Source: a virus. From it: a stretch of DNA of 64,000 nucleotides. The stretch is from IMG/VR virus record IMGVR_UViG_3300028581_000028, positions 20,314-84,313 of that record. One strand, given 5' to 3'. Made by a program: the position numbers and the translations under genes. The notes beneath the pieces are model-generated. The model was not told the origin of the DNA and searched no databases. It was given only the letters and a program-made list of their open reading frames with translations. The first letter of the stretch is position 1; each line of letters starts with the position of its first letter. Shown here one piece after another: positions 2,909-63,172 of this stretch.

Positions 2909-3134
2909 GATTAAAAATCTTTAAATTGTTGCTTTGCTTTATCTAATTTATTTAGCCATTCGTTGAGTTTTTTCTTTGACCATTCTTGGCGATTAGATAA
3001 CTCCTCTGATGCCTCGCTGTATCTGGTATAAAGGATTACGTTATCCTTGCATTTTTTCAAGTAAGCGAGTAGCCGATTGCCTTCTGATACCCGTGTTTTT
3101 AACACCTCTAATTCTTGCTCCGTCATATCGCTGG

Positions 3135-20295: not shown

Positions 20296-22164
20296 TTATA
20301 ATGTGTTATCTTCGACTATGTTAAATAATTGTTCAAGTATCTCCTCCAGCGTACTACAGTAAGTTAAATTTACCGCATCGGATACAGATACTTTTGATGT
20401 TTTTGGATCATTTACTTTTGATGCGTCTTGAGTTATTTTATCCCTAAACGCAGTAACCCTTTTTTCAATTCTTGCAGACCAAGTTTGGTATGCTGAATGA
20501 TTAACAATAAAATCTTTTATCTTTTCCGTGCTGGTGCTTGTTATTGTTTCGCCAAGATACGTTTCTGTTAAGTTATTAAACTCATCATAAAACTCTTGCT
20601 CAAAATCAACATCCTCCACGTTGCGTCCACTTTTTATAATATTAGCACGGATTTCGTTTTTGAAGTTTTCTATTGCCCTCTCAATCCTTTTCTCGAAAAT
20701 GTTTTCGAGTTTTGGGAAGCTAAGTGCAAAATCATCCCCAGCAACGATAATTCCGTTTAACTCTTCAGCGTTAAAACCGCCAAGTATATAATCACCGCCA
20801 CTTTTGAATATATCGGGGTTAAAAAAGATTTCAGTCTTATTCATATCTTCGACTTTTTCAATATTTACATAATGTTTATTATCAATGAGGTCAAGACGTT
20901 TTTCGTTATCGTGATTACATACTTTGCAAGTATGTGTATCCTCGTTTGCCTTAAGCCATTTATGACCGCATTTAGCACAAGTAACTCTGCCACCAAGCTC
21001 CATTTTTTGCTCCGCCCTACGTTGTTCGCTAATGGCTATTGCAAGGGCTTGTTTGCGATCAGTTACCAGTTGTCCGCTTGAGCTTCTTAATCTGCCTTCC
21101 TTAAACTCGTGCATAACGGTAGCTATTTTGCCACCATCTTTAAAACCTTCAACTTCTGCCAGTTTTGTGTAATAATGTTCATCCTTTTCCAGATGTTCAA
21201 CCGCAACGTGTTTAGGTGCTTCCTTTGGGGTTATTTCGTGGCTATATAGTTTACGGAATGTTTTATCGTGTTCGTGTTCCTCGTTGATGCCCATTGCCAG
21301 TTCTTTCTTTGGGTAAGATTTAACGGGTACTTTGCCACCTTTTTTTAGTGTATTTAAAGGATCGTGGATATACTCATCCATTTCCCATAAATCCCAGTTA
21401 TCGCCATTTTTAATTGCAAAATAATGTCCAAGTCCATCATCGTACTCAAGTTGGAGTACAATATCTTGATATTTACCAGCACTATCACCCAACCCTACAA
21501 TTTTATATTTCTCGCCATCAATTTTTATAAGACCACCCTTTTTCATCTCCGTGATATTATTATCGCCAATGTGTTTATCGATAACATCTTTCATATATCC
21601 GAAGCCATTTTCAACTTTGTTAAGCCATTTAAGATCGGCAATAATGCGTTCAATTTTATCGTCCTCTTTATGCCTCAACCCAAATGTTTGCCATTTTACA
21701 TAGAACCAGTTTTCTTTAGGTAGCCAGTACCCTCTTTTAATAACCCTTTCAAGATTTTCAAAAGCCTCGTTATTATAAGCGTTACTGCCCAATGCCCATA
21801 CATCTGGGTGTTGATCTTTAATTTTTTTTGCGTAGTTGTAAATTAACTTTGATGGGACATTATTGGGATTAAACTGTATTGTACGACCACCTTTTTTGTA
21901 CTCATCGGCATCCGCCATAACTTCGTCTGGGGGCAGTATAGGAACTCCGTTACCAGCCGATTGATTTATTTTAGATAATTCTTTCCAATGTTTTTTACTG
22001 GCTTCTCTATTTATAATAACCTCACCGCCCTCCAGTTCTACTATTTGCTTGGTATCGGTTACGATTGCTTTTATTCCACCGAGATGCTTACCATCTTTAT
22101 CGTAATGGCGTTTGCCTTTCAGAGTGCCACCTTTTTTTCCGTTGCTTGTTTGTTTGACCGCCAT
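20296..22164 (-). CDS. Multidomain probable virion-internal protein (DUF5661- and DUF6496-like modules)
   Basis: ELEGGEVIIN motif; ELAMGINEEHEH..YYTKL; KIATVMHEFKEGRLRSSSGQLVTDRKQALAIAISE; CxxC finger; repeated xK(K/D/S)GG linkers. Confidence 0.6.
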   Translation of the reverse strand: MAVKQTSNGKKGGTLKGKRHYDKDGKHLGGIKAIVTDTKQIVELEGGEVIINREASKKHWKELSKINQSAGNGVPILPPDEVMADADEYKKGGRTIQFNPNNVPSKLIYNYAKKIKDQHPDVWALGSNAYNNEAFENLERVIKRGYWLPKENWFYVKWQTFGLRHKEDDKIERIIADLKWLNKVENGFGYMKDVIDKHIGDNNITEMKKGGLIKIDGEKYKIVGLGDSAGKYQDIVLQLEYDDGLGHYFAIKNGDNWDLWEMDEYIHDPLNTLKKGGKVPVKSYPKKELAMGINEEHEHDKTFRKLYSHEITPKEAPKHVAVEHLEKDEHYYTKLAEVEGFKDGGKIATVMHEFKEGRLRSSSGQLVTDRKQALAIAISEQRRAEQKMELGGRVTCAKCGHKWLKANEDTHTCKVCNHDNEKRLDLIDNKHYVNIEKVEDMNKTEIFFNPDIFKSGGDYILGGFNAEELNGIIVAGDDFALSFPKLENIFEKRIERAIENFKNEIRANIIKSGRNVEDVDFEQEFYDEFNNLTETYLGETITSTSTEKIKDFIVNHSAYQTWSARIEKRVTAFRDKITQDASKVNDPKTSKVSVSDAVNLTYCSTLEEILEQLFNIVEDNTL

Positions 22165-54254: not shown

Positions 54255-54288
54255 TTACAAAGGTTATTAGCTATATAAGATGTTATCG
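54255..54288 (+). other. Putative attI-like cassette insertion site
   Basis: Lone GTTATCG core (G at 54282) with no preceding hairpin; its flank pairs with the R'' end of cassette 1. Confidence 0.5.
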
Positions 54289-54293
54289 GCAAC

Positions 54294-54980
54294 CTAAAAA
54301 GACAGCGTACCTTGTTTGATACTTTCTGAAATTCGTTTGATTGCCTTGTCAATATATTCTTTGTCGATTTCAACAGCGGTTAAGTGTAAATTCATTTTAT
54401 CTAAACGGTTGGCTTTATCAACTGCCAAAGCTATTGAACCGCTCCCGAAATGGGTGTCTAAAATCTTTGCGTTTAGTTCAGCATATTTTGTAATTACCCA
54501 ATCATATAAATCAATTGGTTTTTGCGTTGGGTGTATTTTACCATTTTCGCTCCTGCTTAATAGTTTCTTTATTCGAGTAGGTTTTTTAAATGAAGTCCAA
54601 GCCATTTCACCATCTGCAAAACTCATCCCCTCACCTATCATTTTATCCCATATTAAAAAACATTTTGCACTTCCTAAGTATTCTAAAAAATAGTTTCCAC
54701 CCCAAATAATCTGATTTTTTGAAACGCGCTTCAGTTGTTCAAAATATTCATTGTTTGGCGTTGCATTATCCCAACCCTTTGTTTTAAATTGTTTAAAATA
54801 TGTTCCGCTTGTTTCAATATCAATTCCATAAGGAGGGTCAACAATAGCCAAATCAAAGTATTTATCAGGGTATTGCTTCATAATTTCCATACAGTCAGCG
54901 TGGAAAAGAGAAAGAAAAGGCAGCCGATAACACTCGCTATACGCAAGCTGGGGTGTAGTGGTATTTTGAAGGTCTGTCAT
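54294..54980 (-). CDS. Cassette 1: N6/N4 DNA methyltransferase (beta class)
   Basis: VDPPY, HPTQKP, LDTHFGSGS; ATG lies in the attC1 loop. Confidence 0.9.
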   Translation of the reverse strand: MTDLQNTTTPQLAYSECYRLPFLSLFHADCMEIMKQYPDKYFDLAIVDPPYGIDIETSGTYFKQFKTKGWDNATPNNEYFEQLKRVSKNQIIWGGNYFLEYLGSAKCFLIWDKMIGEGMSFADGEMAWTSFKKPTRIKKLLSRSENGKIHPTQKPIDLYDWVITKYAELNAKILDTHFGSGSIALAVDKANRLDKMNLHLTAVEIDKEYIDKAIKRISESIKQGTLSF

Positions 54981-55053
54981 TTTAATTTAGTTTTGTGTAA
55001 TTTGATACTTTTGCGCTTCTAAACCCCGCCAGCGCATAGCGGAAACGTTATAA
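54925..55053 (+). repeat. attC-like site 1
   Basis: CGATAAC..CGCTATACGCAAGCTGGGGT / ACCCCGCCAGCGCATAGCG..GTTATAA. Confidence 0.85.
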
Positions 55054-55131
55054 GCAAGCTGGCAGACGTGCTTCGATTTAACATTTCGGTTGAAAAAATT
55101 AAAATAAAAAAGCCCACGCACATCAGTTTTT

Positions 55132-55827
55132 TCAAAACTGTAAGGTTTGTTGTATTGCATCATAATTAGTTTTGTTGTTTGACCATATTGCTTCCGTTGT
55201 TTTAAACATAGCACCTTGCATATCTACCATTGGTTTAAATGGCAACCAATCAGCTTTAGTGTTTTCACATACTATTGCTTGTCCATTTCTATCTTTGCAC
55301 CATTCAGCAAGTTTTTTAAAGTCAATTTGTTTATTACTGCACTTGTATTCGTGTCCACCAAATTGATATGGTGGGTCTATAAACCAAGTTGCTTCTTCGT
55401 TTTCTAAATCTTCATAACTTGCTTCCCTTATTTCCCAATGTTTAATTTTATGCAGTTGTGTAGCAACATTATTTAATTGTGTTACTATTCCATCAACAGC
55501 ATAACTACTTACCGTTTTTCTTAATCCTGTTGTTCCTTGTTGCACTATAAATCCTAAAAATATTTTTTCATCAGCACTTAAATCAAAGTTATCAAGTGTT
55601 TCCCCAAGTTTTAAAATTGGCAATTTCCTAATATCGTTTTCACTACATTGTTGTAGCCATTTCCAAGTCCTTACTATTATGTGGTATTTATCTACAAGCA
55701 AAACATCGTTCTGCCAATATTTCAAGCTATACCTTGCACTTCCAGCAAAGGGTTCAATTATCCTTTTGTGTTTCGGTGGTGGATAGTAGTCCACTATTTT
55801 TGATTTGCTTCCGTAATAACTAAACAT
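55132..55827 (-). CDS. Cassette 2: Dam/D12-like (alpha class) adenine methyltransferase
   Basis: FSYYGSK, IEPFAGSA, FIDPPY. Confidence 0.85.
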   Translation of the reverse strand: MFSYYGSKSKIVDYYPPPKHKRIIEPFAGSARYSLKYWQNDVLLVDKYHIIVRTWKWLQQCSENDIRKLPILKLGETLDNFDLSADEKIFLGFIVQQGTTGLRKTVSSYAVDGIVTQLNNVATQLHKIKHWEIREASYEDLENEEATWFIDPPYQFGGHEYKCSNKQIDFKKLAEWCKDRNGQAIVCENTKADWLPFKPMVDMQGAMFKTTEAIWSNNKTNYDAIQQTLQF

Positions 55828-55905
55828 ATTTTCCCACGCTTTTTTTTATTTTAATTTTTTCTTTAGTGCTTCGATTTGGCATTTGTGCTAAACAATCCAG
55901 CCAGC

Positions 55906-56003
55906 TTATAACAGCGGTTTTGTGCTATTTGCCCCATTAAGTTTGTCGTTAAATTGAAACATTGTGCAAGGGCAAACAGACACAAAGCCGCAAACCGTTA
56001 TGC
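55906..56003 (+). repeat. attC-like site 2
   Basis: TTATAAC.GCGGTTTTGTGCTATTTGCCC / GGGCAAACAGACACAAAGCCGC..GTTATGC. Confidence 0.85.
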
Positions 56004-56009
56004 ACAAGT

Positions 56010-56240
56010 TTAAGAACCTGCGACATCACATCCTTTTCCGATTGAAAGTGATTTTTTAAATATCTCAACTTTTTGAGTATAATCATTAACAAATCCAATA
56101 GACGTTACTCTAAATGATTTTTTATTGTTTTTAAAAACGTAACGCATTTGGATAAGTTTGTAATATCCACTACTTTCAAACATTCCTACATCAAACCATT
56201 GTGATTTTTCAGGAAATAAATAATTAATTAGCTTTTTCAT
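56010..56240 (-). CDS. Cassette 3: small hypothetical protein (MKKLINYLFPEK...)
   Basis: ATG at 56238-56240 with A-rich leader; the frame also stays open into attC3. Confidence 0.6.
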   Translation of the reverse strand: MKKLINYLFPEKSQWFDVGMFESSGYYKLIQMRYVFKNNKKSFRVTSIGFVNDYTQKVEIFKKSLSIGKGCDVAGS

Positions 56241-56275
56241 TTTATATTGTTTTAAAATTAATAATAAAAACCTGT

Positions 56276-56373
56276 GCATAACCGCACCTATAAGCAATAC
56301 AGCCAATGAGCTTTAGTTGTAACTTTATAGCGTGGTGCATGGCTGTACTGCTCATAGCTGCAACACGTTAGCA
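56276..56373 (+). repeat. attC-like site 3
   Basis: GCATAAC..CTATAAGCAATACAGCCA / TGGCTGTACTGCTCATAG..GTTAGCA. Confidence 0.85.
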
Positions 56374-56415
56374 ACAAGCGTAAGAAAGTCCTACGCTCAT
56401 TACCAACTTGGAAAA

Positions 56416-56616
56416 TTAATCTTTACTAATTTCCCATTCCTTTTTAACAAATCCAGAGAATGAACCAAATTTCTTTTTAAACTTGGATAAACACTCCTTT
56501 TTTGTTTGTCCGTAATAACTATATCTTGCCCCATTATGGAACTCGACAGTTAAATTGAACTCTTCACCGTCTTTTGGTCTTTTGCCTTTTGTACGGTCGA
56601 TGACTTTTATTGCCAT
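56416..56616 (-). CDS. Cassette 4: small hypothetical protein
   Basis: 66 aa ORF filling the cassette body. Confidence 0.65.
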   Translation of the reverse strand: MAIKVIDRTKGKRPKDGEEFNLTVEFHNGARYSYYGQTKKECLSKFKKKFGSFSGFVKKEWEISKD

Positions 56617-56641
56617 GATAAAAAATGTATTAAACGCCAGT

Positions 56642-56772
56642 TGCTAACACTGTATAAATTCAAGTTGGGCGTTGTTCAAACTTGAAACAGTTGTGCTACT
56701 TATATCATTTTGGTAGGTTGACAGGGCATCACACTTAATCCCAACCTGAAATTTATACAGATACCGTTATGT
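56642..56772 (+). repeat. attC-like site 4
   Basis: TGCTAAC.CTGTATAAATTCAAGTTGGG / CCCAACCTGAAATTTATACAG..GTTATGT. Confidence 0.85.
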
Positions 56773-56778
56773 GTAATG

Positions 56779-57435
56779 TTAAGAAGCATCCGTGCAACTT
56801 TGAAGCACTTCAAAACATAATTGTTCAGGGATTCTACTTCTTTCGTAATGTCCGTTTTTACCTTGCGTTCCTGTTTTTGCTCCACGTCTTGCACTTTCAT
56901 GGTGGCAATGCTTATTCATTACATTACCTTGCTTATCGTATTTGTAATTGTGGCATTCGGATCTTGGTATCCATGTTTTTGAGTTAGTCCAAATATCTGT
57001 TGGCTTTGCTCGATCATCTCCATATTGGCAGTACCAAACTGTATGCCTTTTAAATTCTTGCATCCATTCCATGTGTCTTAACATTCCACGTGGGTTTTCA
57101 ATAAAAAACACCATGTTTGGGTTTATAGCCAACCAGTCTTTTATTAGCTTAATAAAGTGTTGGTTTACGACATCACATTTTTTAGCATAATCGCTTTTAG
57201 GTTCTGTTTTATTCCTATGTGTGCTTATCGCTGCAATAGTGTATGTGGTGCAATCAGGCGAAGCCCAAACAACATCAGGAATAAAAGGCACATCTTCTTT
57301 TTTAAGTTCGCCAATATCAATCGAAAGGTTAATGTTTTCGTATTGTTCCCAATCAACTGAAAAAACATTCATTCCTAATTTATCAGCAACTTTACCAATA
57401 CTTCTCGATCCTGCAAATAATTCTAATATATTCAT
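56779..57435 (-). CDS. Cassette 5: compact C5-cytosine-methyltransferase-like protein
   Basis: LELFAGS (motif I), WASPDC (motif IV), FIENP (motif VI), YCQYG..KPTDIW. Confidence 0.8.
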   Translation of the reverse strand: MNILELFAGSRSIGKVADKLGMNVFSVDWEQYENINLSIDIGELKKEDVPFIPDVVWASPDCTTYTIAAISTHRNKTEPKSDYAKKCDVVNQHFIKLIKDWLAINPNMVFFIENPRGMLRHMEWMQEFKRHTVWYCQYGDDRAKPTDIWTNSKTWIPRSECHNYKYDKQGNVMNKHCHHESARRGAKTGTQGKNGHYERSRIPEQLCFEVLQSCTDAS

Positions 57436-57463
57436 AATTAATAATTTACTAATAAAACACTAC

Positions 57464-57556
57464 ACATAACAAAGGCTATAAGCAATTGCCTATCAGCGTT
57501 TGTGGTTAATTGAACAGTATTTACAAGGCAACTGCTCATAGCCTCGAACGTTAGGT
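57464..57556 (+). repeat. attC-like site 5
   Basis: ACATAAC..AGGCTATAAGCAATTGCCT / AGGCAACTGCTCATAGCCT..GTTAGGT. Confidence 0.85.
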
Positions 57557-57574
57557 GTAATGCCAGCGGACACC

Positions 57575-58255
57575 CTAAAACATTCGGAGTTGGCTGACAA
57601 AATCTTTAAAACGCTTTTCTTGTGCTTCATAATAATCTTTGTTAAGTTCAAAACCTGTAAAGTTGAAATTTCCTTTAGCACAAGCAATTCGGCTACTTCC
57701 TGAACCTAAATGAGTGTCTAAAATCAAATTGCCTTGCTCTGCATAATTTTGTAAAATCCAATCGTAAATATTTATATGCTTTTGGCAAGGATGTATTTTT
57801 CCTTTAAATGTATAGTCAACTTTCAATTTGCCATCAAATCCATTCATATTACCAATATCTGAAAATCGTATCATTTTACATTTGCCATCAAAAGAAGTCC
57901 ACGCCAATTCAAATTCATCAAATTCTCGTTTCCCTAAATATCCTGCTTTTATAACTGATTTGTCCCAGCATATCCATTGCCGTTTTATTGGCAAATTAAA
58001 GTAGTTTCCGCCCCACACTATTTGATTTTTAGAAACTCTAAATAACTGCTCCCAATATTCGTCTGTTGGTCTTTCTTTGTCCCATTCAGCTATTCCAATT
58101 CCGTAAGGTGGGTCAACTATTGCAAGGTCAAAATGATTATCAGAAAAGCGTTTTAAACCCTCTACACAATCCTCATTATACACCACAGAAGGCACTGCAC
58201 CTAACACGGTATTGGCAAAATTGCCGTTCTGTTTTTCAATTAAACTTTCGTCCAT
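57575..58255 (-). CDS. Cassette 6: N6/N4 DNA methyltransferase (beta class)
   Basis: VDPPY, HPCQK, LDTHLGSGS; ATG lies in the attC6 loop. Confidence 0.9.
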   Translation of the reverse strand: MDESLIEKQNGNFANTVLGAVPSVVYNEDCVEGLKRFSDNHFDLAIVDPPYGIGIAEWDKERPTDEYWEQLFRVSKNQIVWGGNYFNLPIKRQWICWDKSVIKAGYLGKREFDEFELAWTSFDGKCKMIRFSDIGNMNGFDGKLKVDYTFKGKIHPCQKHINIYDWILQNYAEQGNLILDTHLGSGSSRIACAKGNFNFTGFELNKDYYEAQEKRFKDFVSQLRMF

Positions 58256-58322
58256 AATTTCAACTTTTGTTTTTCAATTTATCTTTCGGTTCGGCAACTT
58301 CGCCAATACCCATACGTACGTT
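58199..58322 (+). repeat. attC-like site 6 (terminal, degenerate R')
   Basis: ACCTAAC..GGTATTGGCAAAATTGCCG / CGGCAACTTCGCCAATACC-CATAC-GTACGTT. Confidence 0.8.
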
Positions 58323-58402
58323 CTTCTGTATCCATGCTGTTTATTTTTTTGGTTTAAAGGGGCGAGGCATAAGCCCCAACCCCTCCTTCTGAACAAAGCA
58401 TC

Positions 58403-59377: not shown

Positions 59378-59419
59378 TTGCACAAATATACAATCGAGAT
59401 AATTAAAATGCAAGTCTTT
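59378..59419 (-). promoter_or_regulatory. Conserved phage promoter, copy 3
   Basis: AAAGACTTGC..TTGTATATTTGTGCAA, upstream of the DUF932 gene and the cassette array. Confidence 0.75.
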
Positions 59420-59939: not shown

Positions 59940-61031
59940 TTATTTTGTTTTAGTTGTTTTAAAATATAATTGCTGGGGAGAATATCTGTAATACTTTGGT
60001 GTATCTGGCTTTTTTAATTCGATCCACTCTACAGCCTTATTTATTCTATCAAGGTTTGTGTACTCAAATGTTTTTGATTTGGTGTTGTATCCTTGTGCTT
60101 TAAAAAAAGCATCAACCTCTGCCTTCCTTTCGGTAGTTGTAAACACACAATCTGTTAAAAACATAAGAAAATCATCGCCCAGTTGGTCGGCTAATTTTAA
60201 AAAGACATCGTAAACATATCCAATAATATTATGCCTAATATGTCTATACTCTGGCTCTCTTCTGTTTATGTAGCGTTTGGGCTTCCCTAATTCATCAACC
60301 TCCATATCCCGACCTTTATAATGGGTTTCCATTTCGCATTTATCCAGCGATCCGATTGAGGCATTTCTACCAAGTTTCCACTCTTTCTTTTTCAAACCCT
60401 TTTTATACGTTTGCTCTGTAATGTACCCAATTTTATAAATCGTTTCCCAGTAGCAATTATTAATATCAACCGAAACACAAACCTTATTTATGTTTTTTTC
60501 AATAGCATCAAGGTTAAATAATTGTTCTTTATAATCCCTCTCCCTTCGAACCAGCTTATCGGCATTCATACTTAGCCAAATATCAACATCAAACTTTACT
60601 GCCTTTGATAAATGAAATCCTTTTCCAACAACATCATCTGCATTAAACGGAATGTATGTTTTGCCATCGTATTTTATTTTTTCAGTTGTTCCGCTAACAA
60701 TTACAGTAAAATTATCACCCCTATCCTCTAAAAATTTTTTTATAACTCCGTAACGATTTTCATCGAGGATAAAAACCGACTTTGGAGGTCTGGGGGGTTT
60801 TATCGCAACGTCCCCGTTTATTTTTTGATCTCCGCCAATATTATCCTCTTGGGGTGCGTTTACTTTAACCTTGCCCTTCTTTTGTTTTAAAGGGCTTTCT
60901 TGGGCTAATTTCTTATCCTTTTTTTCAACAACTTTAACCGAGTTAATATCATTGTTAATAACCATCTCCTTATTATCAATAAGTTTACTCGGTTCTTCAC
61001 TTTTTTTCTTGGCTTTTTTAATCGCTTTCAT
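59940..61031 (-). CDS. Minimal family-B DNA-polymerase-like protein
   Basis: SVDINNCYW (motif A-like), KLGRNASIGSL (motif B-like), FLTDCVF (motif C-like), in the expected order. Confidence 0.55.
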   Translation of the reverse strand: MKAIKKAKKKSEEPSKLIDNKEMVINNDINSVKVVEKKDKKLAQESPLKQKKGKVKVNAPQEDNIGGDQKINGDVAIKPPRPPKSVFILDENRYGVIKKFLEDRGDNFTVIVSGTTEKIKYDGKTYIPFNADDVVGKGFHLSKAVKFDVDIWLSMNADKLVRRERDYKEQLFNLDAIEKNINKVCVSVDINNCYWETIYKIGYITEQTYKKGLKKKEWKLGRNASIGSLDKCEMETHYKGRDMEVDELGKPKRYINRREPEYRHIRHNIIGYVYDVFLKLADQLGDDFLMFLTDCVFTTTERKAEVDAFFKAQGYNTKSKTFEYTNLDRINKAVEWIELKKPDTPKYYRYSPQQLYFKTTKTK

Positions 61032-61045
61032 ACTTATTTTTGTTT

Positions 61046-61660
61046 TTATAAGCCCAGTCTTAATTGGCTTGTGAAGTCTTTAAAACGCTTTTCTTGTGCC
61101 TCAAAATAATCATTATCTATCTCAAATCCAGTAAACTCAAGCCCAGCTTTAAAGCAAGATATTCTACTACTTCCACTTCCAAGATGTGTATCAAGAATTT
61201 TCATATTTGGTTCGGAATAATTTTTTAATATCCAGTCGTATAGTTTTATTGGCTTTTGAGTCGGGTGTAAGCGATATAACTTAGGGTTACTTCCTTTAAA
61301 TATTTTTGCCAGTTTATCGAAAGAAGTCCAAGCGTATTCACACATTGCCAAGCTAAAATCTTCTCCAATTTGCTTATCCCATATTAAAAAACAACGAGTT
61401 GGTGGTAAATCAAAATAATTACCGCCCCAAATTATTTGATTTTTAGATACACGAAATAACTCGTCCCAGTACTCTTTGGTTGGAACATTATCCCAGTCTT
61501 TATTAACTATCTCGTTAAAATTCATCTTGCCACTACTACCGCCCTTAAACTTATCGCCAATTCCATACGGAGGATCAACGATTGCAAGGTCGAAGTGTTT
61601 ATTGGTAAAACGCTTAAGTCCTTGTACGCAATCCTCGTTATAAACCATATTTACTATCAT
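61046..61660 (-). CDS. N6/N4 DNA methyltransferase (beta class)
   Basis: VDPPY, HPTQKP, LDTHLGSGS. Confidence 0.9.
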   Translation of the reverse strand: MIVNMVYNEDCVQGLKRFTNKHFDLAIVDPPYGIGDKFKGGSSGKMNFNEIVNKDWDNVPTKEYWDELFRVSKNQIIWGGNYFDLPPTRCFLIWDKQIGEDFSLAMCEYAWTSFDKLAKIFKGSNPKLYRLHPTQKPIKLYDWILKNYSEPNMKILDTHLGSGSSRISCFKAGLEFTGFEIDNDYFEAQEKRFKDFTSQLRLGL

Positions 61661-61666
61661 AATTCG

Positions 61667-62341
61667 TTATTTAAAATCAATTCTTAATTGGCTTTTAAAA
61701 TCTGTAAACCGCTTCTCTTGGGCATCATAGTAATCTTTATCAAGCTCAAAGCCAACAAATTCAAGACCAGCCATATAACAAGCTATGCGACTACTTCCAC
61801 TTCCAACGTGAGTGTCGAGAATTTTATCGCTCTCTTTAGCATAATTATCAAGTATCCATCTATATAACGTAACGGGTTTTTGGGTAGGATGTATCCTTTT
61901 TTCCTTAATTTTCATATTTTCTTGCAACATCCCAGCCCATTTGTGTTTTACTTTTCTTACTGCAGTATTGAACGAAGTCCACGCAAGTTCGCAATCGGCA
62001 AAATCTGTACCGCCATTATCTTTATCCCAAACAATCCAACACGAACTATCAAACGGAATCTTGCTTATAAAATGGTTTGCTCCGAAAATTATTTGATTTT
62101 TAGAAACCCTCATCAGTTCTTTAAAAAACTCCTCGCTTGGTGCTGATTTATCCCAATCCTTTTTTAAATAATCGATTTTTTTAGCAACACCTCCTCCCTT
62201 GCCTTGCCCTTGATTATTTATGTCGATTCCATACGGGGGATCTATAATAGCCAGATCAAATAACTTGTCCGCATACATCTCTATGCCTCGTAAACAGTCC
62301 ACATTAAAAACTCGATTATCGTAATATCCTTGTTTTAGCAT
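61667..62341 (-). CDS. N6/N4 DNA methyltransferase (beta class)
   Basis: IDPPY, HPTQKP, LDTHVGSGS. Confidence 0.9.
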   Translation of the reverse strand: MLKQGYYDNRVFNVDCLRGIEMYADKLFDLAIIDPPYGIDINNQGQGKGGGVAKKIDYLKKDWDKSAPSEEFFKELMRVSKNQIIFGANHFISKIPFDSSCWIVWDKDNGGTDFADCELAWTSFNTAVRKVKHKWAGMLQENMKIKEKRIHPTQKPVTLYRWILDNYAKESDKILDTHVGSGSSRIACYMAGLEFVGFELDKDYYDAQEKRFTDFKSQLRIDFK

Positions 62342-62539
62342 AATTCTTTATTTAAAATATATAAACTTAACATCCTCCGCATTTTAGCTTTTCGGCTTTT
62401 GTGATCTTTAGAAGGTCTACTATGTTTTAGACCACACGCACAAGGAATTGGCAGTTTTGTAACCCCAAATTTACCAGTTGATGTACAATCAAATGGGTAA
62501 TCTTTTTTCTTAACTCCGTAAGGTTTCATATTTTATAAA

Positions 62540-63172
62540 TTAAAAGTCCATTTTTAACTGACTTTTATGAAAATTAAACTGCCTTTTGCCAGTTTCAAAA
62601 TATTTTTTATCAATCTCGCAAATATCGAGGTTAAAGCCCTCTATATCACAAGCAATCGCAATACTCATACTCCCCCCGTGAGTATCCAATATTTTATAAT
62701 TTGGCTTACCAAAGCGTTTTAACTGCCATCTATACAAATAAATTGGCTTTTGTGTTGGATGTATTCGTTCTATTCCATCTTTTGCATTTGCCCCAACCCA
62801 GCTTTTGTTAATCTTTCGCAAAGTTCCAGCGAAACTCGTCCACGCAAGTTCGCCATCGGCAAAATCATTATCCCCAGTTCCTTTATCCCAAAAAAGCCAA
62901 GCTCCCGTTGGTTTTAAAAACTCGGTCATATAATTACCTCCCCATACGATCTGGTTTCGAGATACACGAAATAACTGATCCCAATATTCTTGAGTTGGAA
63001 TTGCATTATCCCAATCGGCTTCTCCCCGATAAATTCTTTTTCCAGTACCGAGAGTCATTTTATTTACCCCGATTCCATAAGGGGGATCGTCAATCGCTAT
63101 ATCATAGCAATTGTCTGGCTTCCCCCTCATAAATTCAATACAATCACAGTTAAAAAAATTAATTTTTGGCAT
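62540..63172 (-). CDS. N6/N4 DNA methyltransferase (beta class)
   Basis: DDPPY, HPTQKP, LDTHGGSMS. Confidence 0.9.
   Translation of the reverse strand: MPKINFFNCDCIEFMRGKPDNCYDIAIDDPPYGIGVNKMTLGTGKRIYRGEADWDNAIPTQEYWDQLFRVSRNQIVWGGNYMTEFLKPTGAWLFWDKGTGDNDFADGELAWTSFAGTLRKINKSWVGANAKDGIERIHPTQKPIYLYRWQLKRFGKPNYKILDTHGGSMSIAIACDIEGFNLDICEIDKKYFETGKRQFNFHKSQLKMDF

Follow-up and report, generated by a model that had tools for sequence, protein, structure and literature searches.

The window analysed in this study is a stretch of 64,000 nucleotides (positions 20,314 to 84,313) of an 84-kb phage record from IMG/VR (IMGVR_UViG_3300028581_000028), which is about 61% complete and carries all of its sizeable genes on the minus strand; the phage was found in at least a dozen lake metagenomes. 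Positions 54282–58323 of the window contain an array of six one-gene cassettes, composed of a lone core at 54282 and six attC-like hairpins at 54923–58323 (six sites within 3.4 kb). A previous reading made from the letters alone (the sequence-only reading) had proposed that all six genes are inverted relative to the attC top strand. The analysis described below indicates that the locus is probably a real integron-type array without an integrase of its own, built from a hairpin family of Bacteroidota chromosomes and phages, with its six genes inverted.

All six open reading frames (ORFs) of the array lie on the minus strand according to the ORF list, as previously stated, and DNA methyltransferases account for four of them (genes 1, 2, 5 and 6). 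Sites were called with R1, a family-specific covariance model derived from an alignment of 70 distinct phage hairpins, instead of the model of IntegronFinder; all R1 matches given below are on the minus strand, and core positions refer to the plus strand. Cassette 1 (54283–55047) carries the gene for an N6/N4 DNA methyltransferase (54294–54980; PF01555, E = 1.8e-12), whose ATG falls within the loop of hairpin 1 (54923–55055; 81 bits; R'' AAC at 54929–54931, R' G|TT at 55047). Cassette 2 (55048–55997) contains a gene for a Dam-like D12-class adenine methyltransferase (55132–55827; PF02086, E = 1.4e-6; phrog_56) and hairpin 2 (55904–56005; 79 bits; AAC at 55910–55912, G|TT at 55997). The genes of cassettes 3 (55998–56367) and 4 (56368–56766) are small, have no assigned function and gave no match in searches of Pfam and PHROG. 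Gene 3 is a short ORF (56010–56306) with a listed TTG start at 56306 and an ATG at 56243, and gene 4 (56416–56616) codes for 66 amino acids; they are accompanied by hairpin 3 (56274–56375; 62 bits; AAC at 56280–56282, G|TT at 56367) and hairpin 4 (56640–56774; 71 bits; AAC at 56646–56648, G|TT at 56766). Cassette 5 (56767–57550) comprises a DNA methyltransferase gene (56779–57435; phrog_757 in PHROGs, E = 5e-26) and hairpin 5 (57462–57558; 72 bits; AAC at 57468–57470, G|TT at 57550), and cassette 6 (57551–58316) another gene for an N6/N4 DNA methyltransferase (57575–58255; PF01555, E = 6.7e-13), the ATG and first ~18 codons of which fall within hairpin 6 (58197–58323; 88 bits; AAC at 58203–58205). 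The degenerate right core of this last hairpin, G|TAC at 58316–58319, forms the junction with the phage backbone.

The six sites were clearly set apart from the remainder of the window. R1 assigned them 62–88 bits, all on the minus strand, whereas the next match reached 13.5 bits (E = 0.7) and the plus strand of the window gave no match even at E <= 10. Since R1 found no hairpin outside 54923–58323, the methyltransferase-like genes at 59940–63172 are not in cassettes of this kind. Arm-duplex energies ranged from -17.9 to -21.9 kcal/mol for the six hairpins and were -13.0 kcal/mol or weaker for all other AAC..GTT pairs in the 64-kb window. A search of Rfam matched nothing meaningful. To the right of the array, a GC-rich hairpin (GGGGCGAGGCATAAGCCCCAACCCC, plus strand) is located at 58358–58392, between hairpin 6 and a DUF932 gene; a terminator scan of the minus strand made no call there. 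No relatives of this DUF932 gene that might reveal an empty (pre-insertion) site were found in viral contigs.

Hairpins of the same family were detected between methyltransferase genes in the Flavobacterium phages filifjonk9-1 (Muminvirus) and hemulen6-1 (Lillamyvirus) and in the Polaribacter phage P12002L, and 71 IMG/VR loci were collected via homologues of window genes 5 and 6. The alignment underlying R1 contains compensatory changes in 15 of 17 stem pairs and retains one G.T wobble in 65 of its 70 hairpins.

Cassette boundaries and array ends

On the plus strand, each gene is followed by one site of the form xxxTAAC–arm–loop–arm–4 nt–GTTAxxx, the cores being TAAC and GTTA in the six sites, with the degenerate G|TAC in site 6. 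In all six cassettes, the bases 3' of G|TT pair with the inverse core that the next site presents on the other side of the gene, and not with the core of their own hairpin; this is the classic cassette signature. Among the phage hairpins, the 9-nt cores formed perfect inverted repeats in 77 of 123 cases across a gene, compared with 6 of 190 within one hairpin. Because the cores are inverted around each gene, both strand readings fit these boundary repeats, which were therefore rejected as a strand test.

Left of gene 1, the lone core GTTATCGGC (54282–54290) has neither a hairpin partner nor an R1 match. It is complementary to R'' of hairpin 1, its crossover point lies between 54282 and 54283, and it is part of an attI-like array end at 54264–54290 on the plus strand, which consists of an L-box-like TAGCTATATAAG, the dinucleotide AT and the core G|TTATCGGC. 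The array thus has a lone core at one end and a complete attC at the other, as the sequence-only reading had described, although that reading had placed the right core at the GTT of 58320–58322. More than 20 near-identical copies of hairpin 6 carry CCCATAC-G|TTA at their right core, whose homologue in the window is the G|TAC at 58316–58319; the array therefore ends at 58316/58317 and not at the GTT further right. The apparent spacer of 8 nt at site 6 results from taking that GTT as the core.

The left end of the window carries the same signature as the ends of other phage arrays. In 28–34 of these, the downstream end (in gene direction) is a lone inverse core that matches the core of the last hairpin and is mostly followed by T and an arm-like box (TAAC-N4-6-TATAnnCGC) instead of by G and a bulge. 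An attI-like signature of this kind was present at the array end in 28 of 38 phage arrays and reads TAAC-ATCT-TATATAGC on the minus strand of the window. Lone cores at the upstream ends of phage arrays (17 of 39) were not used, since their count is distorted by weak hairpins that escaped the detector; most of these cores are preceded by a normal 3' arm.

Polarity of the hairpin sites in phages and bacteria

The two strands of the hairpins differ in their ability to fold. In the arm-to-arm duplexes of the six window sites, 10 G.T wobbles were counted on the minus strand and 1 on the plus strand, which bears out the earlier suggestion that A/C mismatches between the arms turn into wobbles on the minus strand. 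The comparison of folding energies that the same reading had named as a check gave -15.3, -18.1, -18.1, -16.4, -15.3 and -16.2 kcal/mol for sites 1–6 on the minus strand and -12.8, -17.4, -11.5, -13.5, -12.5 and -12.4 kcal/mol on the plus strand, so that the minus strand was the better fold at all six. Likewise, the coding strand folded better in 156 of 185 phage hairpins. The unpaired spacers measure 0–2 nt after AAC and 4 nt before GTT on the plus strand at every site, and 179 of the 185 confident phage hairpins have a 4-nt bulge after TAAC on the coding strand. Of the same 185, 176 show AAC-G on the coding strand and 177 show AAC-A on the strand opposite; in the window, AAC-A is found on the plus strand at five of the six sites. 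Seven canonical attC sites showed AAC-A on the top strand in all cases (PMC9892861, Table S3).

The strand assignment was decided by a comparison with bacterial arrays built on these hairpins. When 185,579 species genomes were scanned with a strand-neutral pattern, more than 120 places emerged, nearly all of them in genomes of Bacteroidota, and R1 found 193 hairpins in the 80 loci returned. In a Flavobacterium sp. (L203) and in Arundinibacter (L204), every cassette gene lies opposite the R1 strand with a hairpin directly after it, the integrase gene is located just upstream of the array on the gene strand, and the inverse core of the first hairpin has its complement in the lone G|TTATGCAAC at which the first cassette opens. 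The same canonical layout was found at all ten loci with an integrase within 8 kb; nine of these show the lone core, and the lone core is accompanied by a TATAnnCGC box at nine of ten integrase-proximal sites. In L203, inverted GTCTGAC/GTCAGAC repeats occupy the attI-like region between the integrase stop codon and the lone core (3000–3103), and the first cassette has an ATG inside its core GTTATGCAAC.

The recombinase encoded beside the bacterial arrays (L203:1938–2999, L204:1224–2900 and homologues in L105–L149) scored 211–221 bits against NF040815, whose cut-off of 220 was passed only by the L203 protein (221), and 204–209 bits, in two pieces, against TIGR02249, below the cut-off of 265. 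It has 14–19 residues at the IntI-specific insertion, where the profile has about 60 positions, and is thus ~40 residues short; its N-terminal extension comprises ~80 residues, or ~285 in Arundinibacter. The closest solved structures were XerA (4a8e and 5hxy), followed by IntI4 (2a3v) in two stretches; among solved structures, recombinases of the L203/L204 type are hence closest to archaeal XerA. One phage locus (L027) encodes a homologue of the integrase (37% identity), which is situated at the attI-like end on the gene strand.

In the bacterial arrays, the attI-like core, the genes and then the hairpin follow each other on the strand opposite the R1 strand, which is therefore the top strand. 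Because the window displays the same hairpin polarity and an attI-like end at 54282, its top strand would be the plus strand. The comparison thus supports the assignment of the plus strand as the putative attC top strand and, with it, the proposed inversion of all six genes. This homology, and not the three cues of the sequence-only reading (wobbles, spacer lengths and array ends), is the best evidence for the strand call. The order expected of a cassette, with the gene on the top strand and its attC behind it, was found in the bacterial family members and not in the window, where each cassette, in the reading direction of its gene, has the hairpin first and the gene second.

Phages and bacteria differ consistently in this respect. 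Genes lay on the R1 strand at 182 phage hairpins and opposite to it at 3, compared with 22 and 139 bacterial hairpins (Fisher p = 3e-68), although the phage ratio is not unbiased, most of the loci having been fetched via homologues of two window genes. Nine bacterial loci have only hairpins with genes on the R1 strand; five of the nine share genes with phage loci, and three of the four checked hold genes of phage type (methyltransferase, primase, replication initiator). The phage arrays are co-directional with the phage genes at 182 of 185 hairpins, and their attI-like end is transcriptionally distal. As far as can be judged from the sequences compared, inversion is the general rule for phage-borne arrays of this hairpin family, opposite to the arrays of bacteria: the phage loci have all their elements aligned with transcription of the phage, whereas the sites keep a fixed polarity relative to attI.

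The asymmetry of the sites is not peculiar to phages. In 105 of 136 bacterial hairpins, the R1 strand was the better fold, and arms and loop repeats are alike in phage and bacterial sites; the asymmetry is therefore a property of the site as DNA, independent of mRNA or coding sense. In hairpins of the 110–120-nt class, bacterial as well as phage, the loops contain about three tandem GCAC(A/T)AA(A/C)NTTCA-like copies (e.g. L203:5185–5320), which may be binding sites for an accessory factor.

Cassette exchange and expression in the phages

When genes were shared between arrays, the hairpin on their 5' side was retained with a mean identity of 0.84, compared with 0.59 for the 3'-side hairpin and a background of 0.565; for two gene pairs with 96% identity, the respective values were 0.94–0.96 and 0.61–0.66. 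Locus L056 shares 56766–57540 with the window (cassette 5 with hairpin 5) and L004 shares 57547–58317, and both blocks correspond exactly to G|TT, gene and hairpin on the plus strand. The homology to the 3' flank of gene 6 breaks off at 57545–57550, i.e. at the G|TT core, in more than 20 contigs. Natural variants have the same boundaries. In two lake samples from different studies, an abundant relative (79–84x) lacks cassettes 3–5, the right core of hairpin 2 (55994) being joined to that of hairpin 5 (57550), so that hairpin 2 runs into cassette 6 at the plus-strand G|TT. In a third sample, a weaker joint connects the right cores of hairpins 3 (56364) and 5 (57548), and contigs of lake run X5 match rightwards from exactly 54282, preceded by a normal hairpin arm. 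These joints are contigs of related phages and not observed excision events; joints at left cores were not seen among the lake metagenome contigs. Most joints of 545xx–547xx to 579xx–581xx were rejected as rearrangements, as they are cross-matches of the paralogous methyltransferase genes 1 and 6. The cassettes are accordingly bounded by G|TT cores on the plus strand.

Cassette 2 has an additional layer of repeats. A perfect 20-nt inverted repeat (55092–55111/55842–55861) encloses its Dam-like gene, and a direct repeat is present at 55068–55097/55866–55895. The outer ends of the cassette (its start TTATAAGCAAGCTG and hairpin 2) recur in filifjonk9-1, where they enclose a different gene; hairpin 2 is 90.6% identical to its counterpart there, while both neighbouring genes differ. 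In lake run X9, gene 2 is joined at 55112 to another cassette start. Cassette 2 looks like a gene swapped within a conserved cassette chassis.

These data bear on a reading in which the array is canonical, with the minus strand as top strand and each gene followed by a hairpin of its own; hairpin 6 would then be a fixed entry site providing a start codon, and the core at 54282 a truncated last attC. Such an arrangement would agree with the spacing of cassettes 2–5, which on the minus strand start 25–78 nt after a core and stop 10–46 nt before the next hairpin, and with the near-identical copies of hairpin 6 that stand before unrelated gene bodies, with breakpoints at GTTA within the reading frame. 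It would also be in line with the published rule that the extrahelical bases of the bottom strand lie on the arm opposite AAC (PMC5027507), by which the 4-nt bulge on the minus-strand AAC arm marks that strand as the top strand. However, the bacterial arrays have their genes and integrase opposite the bulge strand and their lone core at the integrase end, the nearly identical gene pairs retain the hairpin on the 5' and not on the 3' side, the attI-like signature of the phage array ends is unlike random truncations, and the metagenome joints connect plus-strand G|TT cores. We consider the canonical reading very unlikely.

Several observations nevertheless speak against an inverted integron-type array and have to be set beside the evidence for it. 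The sites share one constant asymmetry, the 4-nt bulge that the better-folding strand carries beside AAC, while the canonical rule would put extrahelical bases on the opposite arm; bases of that kind, on the arm opposite AAC in the bottom strand, were not found. The longer spacer on the GTT side, which the sequence-only reading had cited, is therefore present at every site without being, on its own, a valid strand criterion. Single-base bulges occur in the left arm of site 1 and in the right arm of sites 2 and 4 and are absent from sites 3, 5 and 6; since their side differs between sites, they were rejected as extrahelical bases. A search of the 84-kb contig, itself incomplete as stated above, revealed no gene for a tyrosine recombinase. 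Among six sites tested with IntI1 in E. coli, P12002L_attC1 was the only one not recombined (PMC9892861). Furthermore, gene 2 is found in L040 with neither of its hairpins, and breakpoints occur at the left core of hairpin 6 where it precedes unrelated gene bodies. Other routes, either exchange at the second core or homologous recombination, must therefore be in use as well. Finally, the Bacteroidota -7 motif TAnnTTTG was found on the sense strand in 4 of 186 phage hairpins, compared with ~14 expected, so the cassettes do not visibly carry promoters of their own.

Some of these points would also suit hairpins that are no recombination sites in the phage but act in mRNA as sense-strand stem-loops with G.U pairs, either in the presentation of start codons or as processing marks, with modules being swapped by homologous or illegitimate recombination from one conserved hairpin to another, in the manner of the promoter/stem-loop cassettes of T4-type phages. 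Besides the lack of an integrase gene in the contig and the failure of IntI1 to recombine P12002L_attC1, this explanation could account for the better fold of the sense strand in the phages (156/185), for the start codons located inside the hairpin (96/186) and for the conservation of hairpin 6, which is 93–99% identical in at least 24 phage contigs (L004, L014–L055), far above the genes behind it, as for a recombination-prone homologous block. It is at odds with the bacterial arrays, in which the same hairpins, wobble and loop repeats are antisense to genes beside an integrase, which identifies the asymmetry as a DNA-level property, and likewise with the perfect 9-nt inverted cores that bracket each gene as its own pair and with breakpoints that coincide with the core to the base. 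As a primary explanation, an action in mRNA thus appears improbable, but an RNA role could be a secondary, co-opted use.

A start codon is supplied from within the hairpin in 96 of 186 phage cassettes, often by the ATG of the conserved loop repeat GCACAAATGTTCA. This repeat is also present in the bacterial sites, and the hairpin-supplied start codon looks like a co-option. Hairpin 6 provides otherwise unrelated proteins with a common N-terminal peptide of ~18–21 residues (MDESLIEKQNGNFANTVLG); these proteins include MT-A70-type methyltransferases, zinc-finger-like proteins and products of very short ORFs.

Upstream of the array, ahead of the DUF932 gene, the sequence at 59383–59413 on the minus strand comprises a -7 element (TATATTTG, 59390–59383) and a TTG ~20 nt upstream of it. 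A putative Bacteroidota-type promoter motif does lie there, as read from its letters, at the position for which a leftward promoter had been proposed. A scan for sigma-70 promoters and terminators remained at chance level and is unsuited to Bacteroidota. Six RNA runs contained at most 0.09 of the sampled sequence words, a level that speaks neither for nor against transcription of the array. As the sense strand of the hairpins shows no enrichment of the -7 motif, read-through from upstream would be the simplest model for expression of the cassettes. On the antisense (top) strand of the phage hairpins of L001–L074, TAnnTTTG is enriched (28 versus ~14 expected), and this excess may be a leftover of promoters for top-strand genes in bacterial arrays. 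The proposed adaptation of the cassettes to phage transcription instead of to an integron promoter Pc agrees with the data, in a correlative manner only.

Cassettes of this family could be mobilized by a host-encoded Xer-like integron integrase that acts in trans on the folded minus (bottom) strand, with insertion and excision at G|TT. The phages would maintain a separate pool of cassettes with reverse polarity, whose genes could be read by one-directional phage transcription while the attI-like entry site is at the far end of the operon. Since the recombinogenic strand would then be the sense strand, i.e. the non-template strand and probably the lagging-strand template, cassette turnover may be raised as well. 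A virus-run backwards integron in this full sense, with a reverse-polarity pool, a hairpin before the gene that often supplies the start codon, folding of the sense strand and a host Xer-like integrase that shuffles anti-restriction methyltransferases in trans at a distal attI-like site, is put forward tentatively, as one possible interpretation.

It is also possible, if doubtful, that the inversion is real and has no function, having arisen from a founder pool of cassettes with the hairpin on the 5' side, whose arrays were then oriented along phage transcription. Hairpins are the only element common to canonical bacterial and phage arrays; no homology of gene length was detected between the two, and the two pools are therefore separate. 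No methyltransferase homologue was present in 229 kb of canonical bacterial arrays, and the lack of enrichment of promoter motifs on the sense strand of phage hairpins would be expected of a founder effect as well. Conversely, the rule spans at least 4 cultured genera (Muminvirus, Lillamyvirus and Incheonvirus, with Nonlabens and Tenacibaculum phages included by methyltransferase match only), ~70 metagenomic contigs and more than 120 distinct hairpins. Transcription would be served equally well if an entire canonical array were flipped, yet the gene orientation of such an array was found at 3 of 185 hairpins. In addition, strand placement matters in Vibrio cholerae, where excision rises more than 400-fold, from below 7e-5 to 3e-2, once the bottom strands are placed on the lagging template (PMC13108822). 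The reason for the inversion may lie in phage transcription, in greater single-stranded exposure of the recombinogenic strand or in a founder effect, three ideas that all fit.

Comparison with known integron systems

In integrons, the orientation of cassettes is tied to the promoter beside attI, and strand selection at attC enforces it. The array resembles classical and sedentary chromosomal integrons in its one-gene cassettes, its imperfect hairpins of ~100–135 nt and its ..AAC/GTT.. cores. As in classical integrons, for instance those with Vibrio cholerae repeats, the cores are complementary across the gene, a lone core opens the array and a full hairpin closes it, the two strands fold unequally well and, in the bacterial family members, a tyrosine recombinase gene adjoins the lone-core end. 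Unlike in classical integrons, all six window genes are on the bottom strand and the attI-like end is transcriptionally distal, consistent extrahelical bases are replaced by a 4-nt bulge beside AAC and a conserved G.T wobble, and the cores reach 9 nt (GTTAnnnGC). The associated bacterial recombinase is Xer-like, with ~40 residues fewer at the IntI-specific insertion, and the phage contig encodes none. An IntI with that insertion, as in a complete integron, was not found; with at least two attC sites close together and no integrase nearby, the six R1-called sites in 3.4 kb have the features of a cluster of attC sites lacking an integron integrase (CALIN).

Spirochaetota integrons are served by true IntI proteins and standard attC sites. 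The 'reverse' integrase orientation typical of them is mentioned in a preprint on archaeal integrons (10.1101/2022.02.06.479319), and the chromosomal arrays of Bacteroidota, whose integrase is co-directional with the cassettes and not divergent, may resemble them in this respect. The preprint on IntegronFinder 2.0 lists Bacteroidetes with only In0 elements and one complete integron. The present data point to an integron-like system of Bacteroidota with a Xer-like integrase that lacks the IntI insertion and that standard integron finders appear to miss. In a literature search of incomplete coverage, no paper describing this hairpin family was found.

The mobile regulatory cassettes of T4-type phages, which combine a promoter and a stem-loop, carry their own promoter next to the stem-loop in each module. 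The hairpins of the present family do not share this feature, given the low frequency of the -7 motif on their sense strand.

Clusters of attC sites in phages, including P12002L with two methyltransferases, were described by Qi et al. 2023 (PMC9892861). The window resembles the CALIN of P12002L, a virulent phage of Flavobacteriia in which methyltransferase genes lie between attC-like sites. P12002L_attC1 belongs to the present hairpin family and is likewise composed of AAC, a short spacer, a stem, a longer spacer and GTT; here, too, the methyltransferase genes run antisense to the predicted top strand of the site. The second site of that phage, attC2 (L003, 29175–29243), overlaps the lone GTTAGGC core at the end of its array, and P12002L_attC2, which was recombined by IntI1, may be an attI-like end rather than an attC. 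The P12002L report speaks of two sites with 'divergent directions' and describes neither a systematic inversion of genes nor a bacterial counterpart (PMC9892861), whereas here six sites with cassette signatures, and ~180 phage versus ~160 bacterial sites, go beyond the two of P12002L.

A large natural set of cassettes thus breaks the orientation rule in one consistent way, and in viruses only, while bacterial arrays of the same sites obey it. This provides a natural contrast for what fixes the polarity of cassette genes, be it expression, replication strand or transcription-driven folding, and a likely route by which Bacteroidota phages trade anti-restriction methyltransferases. Cultured test systems are available in the Flavobacterium phages of Muminvirus and Lillamyvirus on strains LMO6 and LMO9. 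A further parallel is the integron of V. cholerae, in which some cassettes, namely promoter-bearing toxin-antitoxin cassettes, are independent of Pc and the hairpin strand relative to replication controls excision (PMC13108822). There, single cassettes or an experimentally flipped array were concerned; here, a natural array has each of its genes reversed with respect to the site of its cassette.

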